This document shows, piece after piece, positions 34-15,682 of a stretch of DNA of 64,000 bases. Below the pieces are notes generated by a model that saw nothing but the letters and a program-made list of their open reading frames with translations, was not told the origin of the DNA and searched no databases. A program made the translations under genes and the position numbers. The stretch comes from Escherichia phage Ge15: the sequence record PP359696.1; one strand, given 5' to 3'. The number at the start of each line of letters is the position of its first letter. The first letter of the stretch is position 1.

Positions 34-390
34 GTGAAGTATGAACTAAAGCGTCAGCTAATTCCTACTGATGTATTAATAGGTCCTGTGACAGCTATAT
101 CATTTGTAATTCTATTGATTGTTGGAATGGTTATAGACTTTATGACTGATATTGAATCTGACGTAATATTTTTGTTAGTATTAATTCTTCCATTAGTAGT
201 TCCATTTTTATTGGTACCTGTAAATTGGGTAGGATATTGGTATCAAGGAAGGCATTATCGTAAACGTGTACGTGAATGGAAAGCTCAGTGTAAAAAGATT
301 AAAAAGGAACACCAGCTTAAACTAAATATGTATGAATTTAATGAAATTATGAAATTTGTTAAGGAATCACGATGCAAAAGCCAAAACTAA
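34..390 (+). CDS. Hypothetical small membrane protein (e.x cluster upstream of nudE)
   Basis: 118-aa ORF with long hydrophobic segments and basic C-terminus; position upstream of nudE/e as in T4 e.2-e.8 cluster. Confidence 0.45.
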   Translation: MKYELKRQLIPTDVLIGPVTAISFVILLIVGMVIDFMTDIESDVIFLLVLILPLVVPFLLVPVNWVGYWYQGRHYRKRVREWKAQCKKIKKEHQLKLNMYEFNEIMKFVKESRCKSQN

Positions 391-10797: not shown

Positions 10798-11343
10798 ATG
10801 ACGGTAGCGGCGAAACGATTAGTATTAGAAGTTAGTTCACTTTTTGGTGAATTGGCTATAGAAAAAGTAAATAATATGTATCGTTTGACACAAGAAGACG
10901 ATATGCTGTATTTTACGCCTAGTGAAATCATTCATTTAACCAAAATTGAAAATCCTTATACTGATAAAATTGTAAGCATTAATGATGAGCATAAAATTCA
11001 TTTTTATTCTTCATGCCCAGGATTTAATATTGAAAGCGAGTCAATATGCTTATCAGTTATCCATTGGGATAGTTTTATAGATAAGATTAAATATTTTTAT
11101 TATTCTAATGAAAGAAAACATAGTTTAAAATGGTTTAAAAATTGCAATGCTATTATTACTAACGCTTGCAATCAGAATGATGAAACTGTTTTAAACGTAT
11201 CAAAATGTTATGAAGATGGAGATGTCTTAACTATTCGTCAAATTGATGATTTTCGAGCACATATTGTCACATTTACCAAAGACGAAGCTATTGCACTAAA
11301 GACTTATCTTGATTCTGTCATTCCAACTATGATTTCAAAGTGA
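10798..11343 (+). CDS. Hypothetical protein
   Basis: 181 aa, GGAG RBS, early promoter upstream. Confidence 0.5.
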   Translation: MTVAAKRLVLEVSSLFGELAIEKVNNMYRLTQEDDMLYFTPSEIIHLTKIENPYTDKIVSINDEHKIHFYSSCPGFNIESESICLSVIHWDSFIDKIKYFYYSNERKHSLKWFKNCNAIITNACNQNDETVLNVSKCYEDGDVLTIRQIDDFRAHIVTFTKDEAIALKTYLDSVIPTMISK

Positions 11344-11349
11344 GGAAAT

Positions 11350-11871
11350 ATGTTTATTTCAAGTGAAAGTGGTTTAATTCGTGTTGAATTTAAAAATGAC
11401 ATCTTTCTTATTCAAGGAGATGATATTATTAAAATGAGTTATGACGAAATCAAGAAAATTTGTCATGCTCTTGAAAGTCATGGAAAAGTGAACGCTGTTA
11501 TTGATATTGGCGATTTATGGGTGACACTTTATGAAGTATCCGAAGGATTTAACATTGAAGATGAAAATAACATTTTAGCTATTGATAAAAGAACTGATTT
11601 GCTTGATGTGTTAAAAGTTTATGAACAGTCAAACGGTGGAAGAAAAGCTGTATTGATTTATCAAAAACCGCATTCATGTGGAACTGCTTCAATCATTTCA
11701 AATATTGAAGGCGAAGTTGATACTTATATGTGTGTTTTAAAAGCTGGTGGTGACCGTCATCCGGATTTTATTTCTATTCGTCAAAACAATGGAGAAATTT
11801 CATTATCAAAATCAGAAGCTGAAGCTATGATTAAGTATTTAACAACCGTTACGCCTTCAATGAAAGGATAA
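11350..11871 (+). CDS. Hypothetical protein
   Basis: 173 aa, GAGG RBS. Confidence 0.5.
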   Translation: MFISSESGLIRVEFKNDIFLIQGDDIIKMSYDEIKKICHALESHGKVNAVIDIGDLWVTLYEVSEGFNIEDENNILAIDKRTDLLDVLKVYEQSNGGRKAVLIYQKPHSCGTASIISNIEGEVDTYMCVLKAGGDRHPDFISIRQNNGEISLSKSEAEAMIKYLTTVTPSMKG

Positions 11872-11873
11872 TT

Positions 11874-12335
11874 ATGATTATTAATGAAAACTCTTGGCAC
11901 TATAAATTATTCAAATTGTTTAACGATGAATGGCAACGACCTAAGACATTATGCGCATATTTTTGGTCTATTGCCATTCCTACATTTTTCGTTTCTATTT
12001 TTGGATGTGTTATACTCGTAGGGCTAACAATTATTTGTGCAGAAAGCCTACAACGTTGGCTTATTTTCGGTAGTTTATGGACTCTTCTTCCATCGGCATT
12101 TATACTTGCACTTTTGGTTGTTTTACTTATTATCGGTTCATTTGTTATTCCTGCACATTTGCGTGAAAAATATAAAGATTATAAATGGAAAAAGGATTAT
12201 GCTTTACACGTAGAAAATATTGATAGGGCGTATAAAGGTTTACCTCCTATTCAACCCAAGAAATCGGTTATCGTTGAATTTTTAAAAGCTCGTAAAGCTA
12301 AAGTATGTCCTGTTATTGAATATAAGGCTGAATGA
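11874..12335 (+). CDS. Hypothetical integral membrane protein
   Basis: 153 aa with 3 predicted TM segments. Confidence 0.5.
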   Translation: MIINENSWHYKLFKLFNDEWQRPKTLCAYFWSIAIPTFFVSIFGCVILVGLTIICAESLQRWLIFGSLWTLLPSAFILALLVVLLIIGSFVIPAHLREKYKDYKWKKDYALHVENIDRAYKGLPPIQPKKSVIVEFLKARKAKVCPVIEYKAE

Positions 12336-13345
12336 TGAAAACAGTAATGAAAAGCTATTTTGGTAGTCATCTTTATGGAACTTCTACCCCAGAATCTGAT
12401 GTAGATTTTAAAGAAATCTTTGTTCCTCCTGCTCGTGATATTCTTATCGGAAATGTTAAAGAGCATATGAGTAAAAATACCAACAACACATCATCTAAAA
12501 ACACTAAAGATGATATTGACCACGAATTGTATAGTCTTAAGTATTTCTTTAAATTAGCAGCAGATGGTGAAACTGTAGCATTAGATATGCTTCACACTCC
12601 ACCTGAACTAGTGGTTAAATCTGATTTGCCTGATGTGTGGAAGTTTATTCAAGACAACCGTTCTCGTTTTTATACGACTAACATGAAATCCTATTTAGGA
12701 TATGTCCGCAAGCAAGCTTCTAAATACGGTGTCAAGGGTTCTCGTTTGGCTGCATTACGCGATGTATTGAAAGTAGTTAATCAAATCCCTGAGCAATGGG
12801 TTGATTACCAAGAAGACGGTTCCATTAAGCAGCGTCGTACTAAAGTTGAAGATATTAAGCATCGTCTTCCAGAAAACGAATTCTGTGAATGGGTGTTCCA
12901 TAATCATGAGAAAACAGGTCCACAAACGTTCTATACAGTGCTGGGTCGTAAATATCAGACAACGCTTTCTCTTATTGAGCTTAAGCAGTCACTGAACAAA
13001 TTAGATGCTGAATATGGTGAACGTGCTCGTAAAGCCGAAGCTAATGAAGGTATTGATTGGAAAGCACTAAGTCATGCTTGTCGTGGTGGACTTCAACTAT
13101 TGGAAATTTACAAAACTGGCGACTTGATTTATCCACTCCAAGATGCTCCATTTATTCTCGACGTGAAGTTGGGTAAACATCCATTTAAAACAGTTCAAGA
13201 GTTTTTGGAAGATGTGGTCGATCAAGTAGAAGCAGCATCTACTGAAGCTTCTAAGAACGGTATGCAGCAAAAAGTAGACATGGGTTTCTGGGATGACTTC
13301 CTTGAGAAGGTCTATCTTGAAAACCACCGAAGTTATTATAAATGA
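12332..13345 (+). CDS. Nucleotidyltransferase-fold protein (Pol-beta superfamily-like)
   Basis: N-terminal GSHLYGTSTPESDVDF matches GS-x(9-13)-DhD nucleotidyltransferase signature; followed by terminator. Confidence 0.5.
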   Translation: MMKTVMKSYFGSHLYGTSTPESDVDFKEIFVPPARDILIGNVKEHMSKNTNNTSSKNTKDDIDHELYSLKYFFKLAADGETVALDMLHTPPELVVKSDLPDVWKFIQDNRSRFYTTNMKSYLGYVRKQASKYGVKGSRLAALRDVLKVVNQIPEQWVDYQEDGSIKQRRTKVEDIKHRLPENEFCEWVFHNHEKTGPQTFYTVLGRKYQTTLSLIELKQSLNKLDAEYGERARKAEANEGIDWKALSHACRGGLQLLEIYKTGDLIYPLQDAPFILDVKLGKHPFKTVQEFLEDVVDQVEAASTEASKNGMQQKVDMGFWDDFLEKVYLENHRSYYK

Positions 13346-13347
13346 TA

Positions 13348-13372
13348 GGGAGCCTTCGGGCTCCCTTTTTTA
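13348..13372 (+). terminator. Intrinsic terminator
   Basis: GGGAGCC-TTCG-GGCTCCC + TTTTTT. Confidence 0.8.
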
Positions 13373-13393
13373 TTTCAAAAATTTTTCACAAAG

Positions 13394-13432
13394 TTGTTTA
13401 CAAGCATAAAGCTTTATGGTACTATACAACTA
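13394..13432 (+). promoter_or_regulatory. T4-type early promoter
   Basis: GTTGTTTAC ... TATGGTACTATACAACTATC; palindrome ATAAAGCTTTAT in spacer. Confidence 0.7.
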
Positions 13433-13463
13433 TCAAAACAAATGAGTAAATTGGAGATACAAA

Positions 13464-13664
13464 ATGACTACTTTGAATAAACGTTTCGGTAAAGCTAAAT
13501 CTGGGTGTGCAGCTGAACGTCGTTATGTTTTCGCTCAGTTAGAAGATGTAGAGTATCAGATTAATCAAGTTCACATTACTGGTATCGAGCCTATGTGTGG
13601 CCTTGAAGCTCTTCGTGAAGTTCGTGACGGGTATCGTCGTGACATCGAAGAAATGTCAAAATAA
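13464..13664 (+). CDS. Hypothetical small protein
   Basis: 66 aa; early promoter and GGAG RBS upstream. Confidence 0.45.
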   Translation: MTTLNKRFGKAKSGCAAERRYVFAQLEDVEYQINQVHITGIEPMCGLEALREVRDGYRRDIEEMSK

Positions 13665-13721
13665 GTATACAAACTGATAGGACTATGTTATAGTAGTCCT
13701 ATCAAATCAAAGGAGAATAAA

Positions 13722-14690
13722 ATGAAAACTGTAACTATCAATAAGGGTATCTACTTTGGCAAAGAAATCTCTGGAACTTTTGAGCTCTTAGGCGAATGGT
13801 TCCCAGATAATGCTCCGGTAGATGCACAAGGAGATGGTAAAGTTTTTGTTGAAATTGACGGTAAACGTCGCGGTGTTTGGGTTTACAAATCAGATATTTC
13901 ATATGATGGTGTAAAAGTTGAAGAAGTTAAAGAATCGTATGAAGATATGAAAACCCGCATTAATAAAAGATTTAATGTTATGGGAATGATGACGAATGGT
14001 ATTATTAATGGAAATATTCGTTCATTAATTATCTCTGGCGCAGCAGGTATTGGTAAAACGTATTCTTTAGATAAAGCTTTAAATAAAGCAAATGATATTG
14101 GATACATTGAATATAAAAGCATTAATGGTAAAATCTCTGGTATCGGTCTTTATGAACAGCTTTGGAATAATCGTGAAGAGAATTCTGTCCTTTTGATTGA
14201 TGATGTGGATGTTTTCTCTGATATGGACATTCTTAATCTTCTGAAAGCTGCTCTGGACACCGGAGAGACCCGCAAAGTCTGCTGGAGCACTGCATCTTCT
14301 TACTTAGAAGAAAAAGGCATTGAGCGTGAGTTTGAATTTAAAGGAACGATTGTTTTTATCACAAACGTTGACATTGACCGCGAATTAGACCGTGGTACTA
14401 AACTTGCTCCACATTTACAAGCATTAGTTTCCCGCTCGGTTTATTTAGATTTGGGTGTTCACACTAATGAAGAAATTATGGTCAGGGTTGAAGATGTTAT
14501 TCTTTCAACTGACATGATGCAAAAACGCGGTCTTTCTGATGAAGAAACTTATAAAGCATTATCATGGATGAAAGTCAATGTTAATCGTTTACGCAATGTT
14601 TCACTGCGTACTGCACTTTATCTTGCTGACTTTATTATGACCGACAAAAACGGTTGGGAAGAAATCGCTGAGGTTACTCTTCTGAAATAA
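13722..14690 (+). CDS. AAA+/P-loop ATPase
   Basis: Walker A GAAGIGKTY and Walker B VLLIDDVD; AAGGAG RBS. Confidence 0.6.
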   Translation: MKTVTINKGIYFGKEISGTFELLGEWFPDNAPVDAQGDGKVFVEIDGKRRGVWVYKSDISYDGVKVEEVKESYEDMKTRINKRFNVMGMMTNGIINGNIRSLIISGAAGIGKTYSLDKALNKANDIGYIEYKSINGKISGIGLYEQLWNNREENSVLLIDDVDVFSDMDILNLLKAALDTGETRKVCWSTASSYLEEKGIEREFEFKGTIVFITNVDIDRELDRGTKLAPHLQALVSRSVYLDLGVHTNEEIMVRVEDVILSTDMMQKRGLSDEETYKALSWMKVNVNRLRNVSLRTALYLADFIMTDKNGWEEIAEVTLLK

Positions 14691-15094: not shown

Positions 15095-15132
15095 TTGTTT
15101 ACAAGACCGTTCCTCTGTGGTACTATACAACT
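15095..15132 (+). promoter_or_regulatory. T4-type early promoter
   Basis: GTTGTTTAC ... TGTGGTACTATACAACTATC. Confidence 0.7.
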
Positions 15133-15154
15133 ATCAACTACGGAGGAACACAAA

Positions 15155-15682
15155 ATGAACGCTAAAGATATTTTCAACCTGGTAAATTACAACGATGGTA
15201 AATTTAAATCAGAAGCACAAAGCAAGTTCTTTAATGACATCTCAATCGGAGGTGAAATCACGGTTGATGGAGGACAAATTTACAAATCCCGTTGGAATTG
15301 GATCGTTATTATTGATGAGATTGGTATCGTAGAAATTTATAAAAATACGAATAAAAATCGTACATTACACTGGTCTCGTGATACTAACGAACAGTACAAA
15401 AAGGATAAAGCATCTAAATTATCTCGTGTAACTCAAGAAGATATTGAGTTCATCAAGAAAGATATTTTGATGTATGATAACTTAATTGCTGAAGAGCAAG
15501 CTGTTATTGATAAATTTGACGAGATTAAAGCTTCTCGTGAAATTCCTGATTTTATGAAAGAATCAGTAAATGAACGATACACTCTCATTTCAGAGCGTAT
15601 TGAAACTTACAAAAAGCAAAGAGCTGAACGCCAGAATACTCTTCGGAAGTTTGAAGAACGGTTAAAGACGGTACTCGCATAA
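15155..15682 (+). CDS. Hypothetical protein
   Basis: Start at ATG 15155 after GGAGG RBS, downstream of early promoter (track ORF 15095 begins inside promoter). Confidence 0.5.
   Translation: MNAKDIFNLVNYNDGKFKSEAQSKFFNDISIGGEITVDGGQIYKSRWNWIVIIDEIGIVEIYKNTNKNRTLHWSRDTNEQYKKDKASKLSRVTQEDIEFIKKDILMYDNLIAEEQAVIDKFDEIKASREIPDFMKESVNERYTLISERIETYKKQRAERQNTLRKFEERLKTVLA

Follow-up and report, generated by a model that had tools for sequence, protein, structure and literature searches.

We have analyzed two adjacent genes, nrdC.11 and nrdC.10, in a 64,000-nucleotide stretch of Escherichia phage Ge15 (sequence record PP359696.1), the whole of which is called the window here. NrdC.11 is a Pol-beta nucleotidyltransferase of the RlaP family, and NrdC.10 is a genuine AAA+ ATPase from a large, phage-only family without a close solved structure. 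An earlier reading of the same DNA, referred to below as the original prediction, had suggested that the two proteins form one anti-defence or host-takeover module. The comparisons presented here indicate that nrdC.11 and nrdC.10 are not a module and that they are neighbours through shared ancestry. The probable account is one of two independent early accessory genes, coding for an RlaP-family enzyme and for a separate AAA+ protein, whose adjacency was inherited. Both are already catalogued as accessory genes of T4-like phages; in a 2006 comparison of T4-like genomes nrdC.11 was related to the COG3541 nucleotidyltransferase and nrdC.10 to AAA ATPases (PMC1524935).

Family and fold of the two proteins

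The open reading frame (ORF) for NrdC.11 codes for 337 amino acids (aa) with the N-terminus MMKTVMKSYFGSHLYGTSTPESDVDF; in related records the start is placed one codon later (336 aa). Its position identifies this ORF as the T4 nrdC.11 orthologue, with a product 99% identical to a phage T2 protein. Residues 11-26, GSHLYGTSTPESDVDF, carry the GS...DxD motif on which the prediction of a nucleotidyltransferase was based. The motif stands above chance, since the match of the protein to the Pfam family RlaP (PF10127) reaches 44.3 bits (E = 2.3e-11), with a membership cut-off of 23 bits. The match to phrog_388, 'nucleotidyltransferase', has an E value of 1.8e-136, and 'nucleotidyltransferase' is already the RefSeq annotation of nrdC.11. 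Among 1.84 billion cluster representatives, searched exhaustively, there were 3414 relatives, 826 of them with E < 1e-30. When the window protein was aligned with 63 relatives, each 34-55% identical to it, the residues G11, S12, G16, S22, D23, D25, N57 and D63 were invariant, as were Y132, K244, H248, R251, P268 and K279; all but one of the 64 aligned sequences also match RlaP individually. The Pol-beta catalytic set, consisting of hG[GS], DxD and a third Asp, is complete (G11-S12, D23, D25 and D63), and the third acidic residue, which the original prediction had singled out for checking, is present as D63. Searches of NCBIfam gave only noise-level matches, to the MntA and Hda models, and PADLOC had no match for any of three proteins. 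PDB sequence searches with NrdC.11 and NrdC.10, both as single proteins and as family profiles, yielded nothing useful from a set that apparently lacks the PfRlaP crystal structure.

An AlphaFold2 model built from the 64-sequence alignment reached a predicted local distance difference test score (pLDDT) of 94.2 and a predicted template modelling score (pTM) of 0.82. The modelled positions are those canonical for Pol-beta enzymes: the G-S pair where the first strand meets the first helix, DxD at the beginning of strand 24-31, and D63 on strand 62-68. The confident model and the invariance of D63 bear out the proposed nucleotidyltransferase fold. Beyond the core come long helices, the last of which spans 317-336, and an insert rich in beta structure at about 155-209; thus the helical body of some 300 aa described earlier has its long helices but is not purely helical. 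The closest solved structural neighbour was HalB, in libraries that do not include the PfRlaP structure. There was no cGAS/DncV-like nucleotidyltransferase (CD-NTase) within the top 60 neighbours, and neither the sequence nor the fold of NrdC.11 is cGAS- or DncV-like in the manner of the enzymes of cyclic-oligonucleotide-based antiphage signalling systems (CBASS). The original prediction had named CD-NTases, MNT antitoxins and antibiotic nucleotidyltransferases for their fold; none of them is the family of NrdC.11, which is RlaP.

NrdC.10, the orthologue of T4 NrdC.10, had been described as a 322-aa P-loop ATPase with the motifs GAAGIGKTY (Walker A) and VLLIDDVD (Walker B), and by its conserved motifs and model it is a true AAA+ protein. 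A Pfam scan gave only generic AAA matches below cut-off and found no dedicated model; in PHROGs the protein falls in phrog_1250 (function not annotated). Among 43 homologues that are 55-89% identical to the window protein, invariant residues include Walker A from G106 to K112, Walker B D160-D161 (a DD variant), the sensor-1 N215, R238 in an SRS motif (the candidate arginine finger) and R291/R296. In the model (pLDDT 88.5) a small beta domain at the N-terminus is joined by a linker helix to an AAA+ core, in which a hairpin-like insert (185-205) precedes the sensor-1 strand, and a helical lid follows. Walker A, Walker B, sensor 1, a candidate arginine finger and an alpha/beta core followed by a helical lid are thus all found in this protein.

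The family is extensive: a search started from a homologue with 40% identity to NrdC.10 gathers more than 8000 clusters (90% clustering), and BFVD neighbours come from diverse tailed phages. Large uncultured phages (loci L163-L167, L058, L061 and L073) display the order RecA-like protein, ATPase homologue, UvsW-like helicase and DnaB, and Roseobacter phage RDJL6 (L168) has the order exonuclease, ATPase homologue, DNA polymerase A and helicase. The helicase near the ATPase homologue in L073 carries a Hint/intein-like segment. NrdC.10 would most likely be a ring-shaped remodelling motor, and a role in DNA metabolism is our best, weakly supported, guess, because homologues are found amid replication and recombination genes in three unrelated phage lineages.

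That NrdC.10 might instead be a MoxR-like chaperone, maturing or remodelling a protein complex and having no part in DNA metabolism, is unlikely. The modelled insert before the sensor-1 strand resembles a beta-hairpin, as in that superclade, but this resemblance is at the level of the fold only; there is no MoxR match in Pfam or NCBIfam, no von Willebrand A-domain (VWA) protein is encoded among the neighbours, Walker B is DD rather than DE, and the replication and recombination context of the homologues also argues against it. Many GenBank records name nrdC.10 and nrdC.11 products 'thioredoxin', and some name nrdC.10 products 'processivity clamp loader'; these names are unsupported and seem to have been carried over from the nrdC name or from weak matches. 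NrdC.10 is very widespread in phages and a long-known orphan, which makes it a reasonable target for genetics, although the window sequence gives no special handle on it.

Adjacency of nrdC.11 and nrdC.10, probably inherited

The terminator, promoter and 66-aa ORF that had been noted between the two genes are all present, at 13347-13664. The terminator (stem-loop at 13347-13366) has an 8-bp G+C-rich stem followed by a T run, and is annotated as a terminator in NC_054922. Both it and the early promoter are identical base for base in T4, where the promoter sequence sits directly upstream of nrdC.10; between the two genes the window departs from T4 only in having about 260 bp inserted after the promoter and ahead of nrdC.10, a segment that includes the 66-aa ORF and a hairpin. 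As a separate observation, this insertion lies at 13426-13705 of the window, and of 82 related loci just 2 have the 66-aa ORF. From this layout nrdC.10 would be transcribed from its own early promoter.

Conservation of the pair was examined in 78 viral loci found via the nucleotidyltransferase and in 80 found via the ATPase, the partner being sought within 10 kb. The joint module is supported by the fact that the genes are adjacent and in the same orientation, and by the 38 of 78 loci, from Tevenvirinae and Acinetobacter T4-like phages, in which the ATPase follows 112-2290 bp downstream of the nucleotidyltransferase. Even so, we regard it as very unlikely. No ATPase was found within 10 kb in the other 40 nucleotidyltransferase loci, three of which have an 82% identical nucleotidyltransferase, and no nucleotidyltransferase within 10 kb in 41 of the 80 ATPase loci, so the module fails the test of co-conservation that the original prediction had set for it. 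Aeromonas T4-like phages and Vibrio phage VH7D possess both genes, about 40-60 kb apart. The nucleotidyltransferase occurs alone in at least 137 Klebsiella phage records and the ATPase alone in at least 62 Vibrio phage records, and the nucleotidyltransferase is distributed like RNA ligase 1 (see below). It is because of the conserved strong terminator and separate promoter, the variable gap that accepts insertions such as the 66-aa ORF, the partnerless loci, the distant placement and the differing genus counts that we conclude that the genes are not a module. Judged from these comparisons, their adjacency appears to be an inherited gene order, kept within Tevenvirinae and Acinetobacter T4-like phages.

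Upstream of nrdC.11 is a gene for a 153-aa membrane protein, the stop of which overlaps the nrdC.11 start (ATGA). The protein's position ahead of the nucleotidyltransferase is confined to loci of Tevenvirinae and of T4-like Acinetobacter phages, most of which have it, with gaps of -3 to 2608 bp. Since its linkage is as lineage-restricted as that of the ATPase, the membrane protein, nrdC.11 and nrdC.10 together would be a block of inherited gene order. We considered whether the two-transmembrane protein and the nucleotidyltransferase could be a Hailong-like pair and rejected this, given the lineage-restricted linkage and the lack of similarity to HalA. One homologue of the 153-aa protein has a weak, below-cut-off Pfam match to a SAVED-fused two-transmembrane effector domain.

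NrdC.11 and its proposed part in RNA repair

RNA repair was first discovered in phage T4. The name RlaP was introduced by Burroughs and Aravind in 2016. It stands for RNA ligase-associating Pol-beta nucleotidyltransferases, and PF10127 was formerly COG3541. The name derives from the position of these genes next to RNA ligase genes in bacteria; the enzymes also track RNA ligases in jumbo phages, and were predicted to put back nucleotides taken off by nucleases such as RloC, ahead of ligation (PMC7824862). According to a preprint of December 2025, two Pseudomonas RlaPs (from P. fluorescens and P. aeruginosa) add one or two nucleoside monophosphates (NMP, or the deoxy form dNMP) to RNA 3'-OH ends, prefer Mn2+, do not use DNA as an acceptor or E. 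coli proteins as substrates, and raise the aminoacylation of a repaired tRNA from which a nucleotide had been lost; the preprint also lists T4 NrdC.11 as an RlaP, in cluster 5 (PMC12776372). The nucleotidyltransferase therefore belongs to an established family, in which it has been recognized before; a mechanism (for bacterial members) and the link to T4 are in print, and for this protein the earlier statement of unknown function is out of date (PMC12776372). The T4 fragment from nrdC.11 to mobD.3 is described as deletable in another report (PMC9825161).

The distribution of NrdC.11 was compared with those of T4 RNA ligase 1 and of the ATPase by translated searches of 50,697 phage records, as shown in Table 1; the counts are totals per host genus, not per genome. 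The genus-level counts of the nucleotidyltransferase and RNA ligase 1 are nearly equal, so that the nucleotidyltransferase tracks RNA ligase 1 and not the ATPase.

Table 1. Phage records with matches, by host genus
Query	Escherichia	Klebsiella	Shigella	Aeromonas	Acinetobacter	Enterobacter	Vibrio
T4 RNA ligase 1	638	287	83	77	69	56	54
Nucleotidyltransferase	640	286	83	75	69	56	59
ATPase	557	149	76	48	72	36	121

A nucleotidyltransferase homologue with 31% identity, in phage DSS3_MAL1 (locus L084, 6001-6972), is surrounded by a cluster made up of 16 tRNA genes and one for tmRNA; at a single further locus seven tRNA genes occur some 8 kb upstream. Proximity to tRNA genes was rejected as a general trait of nucleotidyltransferase loci, as it is clear in DSS3_MAL1 only. 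Genes for NAPRTase, NadR-Nudix, thymidine kinase and antiholin near distant nucleotidyltransferase loci were likewise discarded as functional clues, since they reflect ordinary T4-like gene order.

The partners of NrdC.11 would be the phage polynucleotide kinase-phosphatase and RNA ligase 1, and their joint task may be to rebuild tRNAs after RloC-type anticodon nucleases of the host have cleaved and subsequently trimmed their anticodon loops. So read, NrdC.11 would be an RNA-repair counter-defence enzyme. If it is the missing nucleotide-restoring step of T4, this would explain how the phage copes with base-removing anticodon nucleases where simple religation fails. The idea of nucleotide restoration has appeared in print before (Burroughs and Aravind 2016; PMC7824862; PMC12776372), and the window adds nothing new to it.

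Several points weigh against the picture of two independent genes, one serving RNA repair and the other DNA metabolism. The conserved order of the 38 loci, taken alone, leaves room for a degree of cooperation in the lineages concerned. The agreement with RNA ligase 1 is one of genus-level totals and could reflect the shared ancestry of T4-like phages, and in T4 nrdC.11 lies at 55 kb, beside neither pseT nor rnlA, which is at 136 kb. The Pfam match spans only residues 7-135 of NrdC.11, the protein has a beta-rich insert (155-209) and is placed in a separate RlaP cluster, and extension of RNA 3' ends is known for the bacterial enzymes and predicted for the phage type. For NrdC.10, the replication context comes from homologues that are 26-40% identical, and could be mere early-gene clustering.

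Two bolder ideas, set out together, seem to us highly improbable: the phage-type RlaP might, instead of repairing tRNA, make short-oligonucleotide decoys against Hailong-type defences, which is suggested because HalB is the closest solved structural neighbour, and, separately, the NrdC.10 family may be a core accessory motor of phage DNA metabolism that has gone unrecognised. There is scarcely any prospect that NrdC.11 makes a free signal, either a messenger of the CD-NTase kind or a HalB-like oligodeoxyadenylate decoy that keeps the HalA channel shut. The finding that Hailong is triggered once phage exonucleases remove the DNA product of HalB (PMC13276650) would give such a decoy a use, but no similarity to HalB (PDB 9dbh) was detected even with a family profile at E values up to 10, PADLOC gave no match, there is no CD-NTase among the structural neighbours, and the sequence is firmly that of an RlaP, a family whose tested members add just 1-2 nucleotides to RNA and do not accept DNA. 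Equally hard to credit is the modification of a protein or small molecule in the style of an MNT-type antitoxin or an aminoglycoside/lincosamide nucleotidyltransferase, as the weak, below-cut-off NTP_transf_2 and MntA matches cover only the universal motif in the G-S/DxD segment and are far weaker than that to RlaP, bacterial RlaPs leave E. coli proteins unmodified, and no HEPN toxin partner is encoded nearby.

Features of the region and comparison with known systems

The features of the region are collected in Table 2. The window has a G+C content of about 35%; between 12000 and 15000 it shows 97.7% DNA identity to Tequatrovirus genomes and has matches in 784 phage records. By its sequence the window is assigned to a T2/T4-like Tequatrovirus. 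The gene order on the early-transcribed strand is that of T4: tk, rI, small ORFs, two y05I-like genes, the membrane protein gene, nrdC.11, nrdC.10 and nrdC.9 through to nrdC.

Table 2. Positions of genes, signals and motifs in the window
Feature	Position	Strand	Basis or details
153-aa predicted two-transmembrane protein	11874..12335	+	ORF; phrog_944 'membrane protein'
NrdC.11 orthologue, RlaP-family (PF10127) Pol-beta nucleotidyltransferase	12332..13345, likely true start 12335	+	Pfam, PHROGs, T2/T4 match, model
NrdC.11 catalytic codons	G11-S12 12362-12367; D23 and D25 12398-12406; D63 12518-12520	+	
Intrinsic terminator of the nrdC.11 transcription unit	13347..13376	+	AGGGAGCC-TTCG-GGCTCCCT, then T run
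T4 early-type promoter for the 66-aa ORF and nrdC.10	13397..13425	+	TTTACA, 17 nt, TGgTACTAT
66-aa ORF, phrog_6200	13464..13664	+	Within the ~260-bp insertion not in T4
Inverted repeat between the 66-aa ORF and nrdC.10	13674..13705		12-bp stem; same ~260-bp insertion
NrdC.10 orthologue, 322-aa orphan phage AAA+ ATPase	13722..14690	+	
NrdC.10 domains	Residues 1-62; 100-245; 249-321		N-terminal beta domain; AAA+ core; lid
NrdC.10 Walker motifs	14037-14060; 14187-14210		Walker A G106-T113; Walker B V156-D163
NrdC.10 sensor 1 and candidate Arg finger	14364-14366; 14433-14435		N215; R238

The y05I-like genes are tandem paralogues (10798-11343 and 11350-11871), and both match the Pfam families T4_y05I_N and T4_y05I_C (putative transcription factor). 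One copy is named 'molybdopterin-guanine dinucleotide biosynthesis protein MobD' in a RefSeq relative, which looks like a name error. The nrdC.8 orthologue at 15095-15682 has no Pfam match. A study of the defence system DRT1, from 2026, reports T4 nrdC.8 mRNA to be lowered in DRT1-expressing cells and treats the gene as a 'nucleotide reductase'; because the protein matches no Pfam family, this label seems to be based on the gene name alone.

Among known AAA+ proteins, NrdC.10 can be compared with two groups. With the MoxR class (NorQ, CbbQ) and the bacterial enhancer-binding proteins it shares an AAA+ core that has an insert preceding the sensor-1 strand. It differs from them in sequence, with 9-16% identity and no family-level match, in its distinct N-terminal beta domain and DD Walker B, and in having no VWA partner. 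The second group comprises DnaA, Hda, ORC and the clamp loaders. The Walker B sequence LLIDDVD resembles the DnaA/Hda type; there is a weak match to Hda (E 0.017), there are weak matches to clamp-loader PHROGs (E ~1e-4), and homologues of NrdC.10 occur in phage replication modules. These matches are, however, far under the family cut-offs, and the extra hairpin insert is missing from those clades.

For NrdC.11 the systems to consider are Hailong and the bacterial RlaPs. HalB is a protein of 217 aa that makes oligodeoxyadenylate for a membrane-channel partner; NrdC.11 has no detectable sequence relationship to it, and the two-transmembrane protein encoded upstream has no match to HalA. The bacterial RlaPs lie in RtcB/RtcA operons, whereas nrdC.11 has no RNA ligase gene beside it. 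The crystal structure of PfRlaP consists of an N-terminal nucleotidyltransferase domain and a C-terminal helical domain, with a terminal helix that packs back (PMC12776372), and the nucleotidyltransferase core, long helices and final helix of the NrdC.11 model may follow a comparable plan. Like the members of this family NrdC.11 scores above the Pfam cut-off and has the same hG[GS], DxD and third-Asp set, and the phage that carries it has a 5'-phosphate RNA ligase repair pathway.

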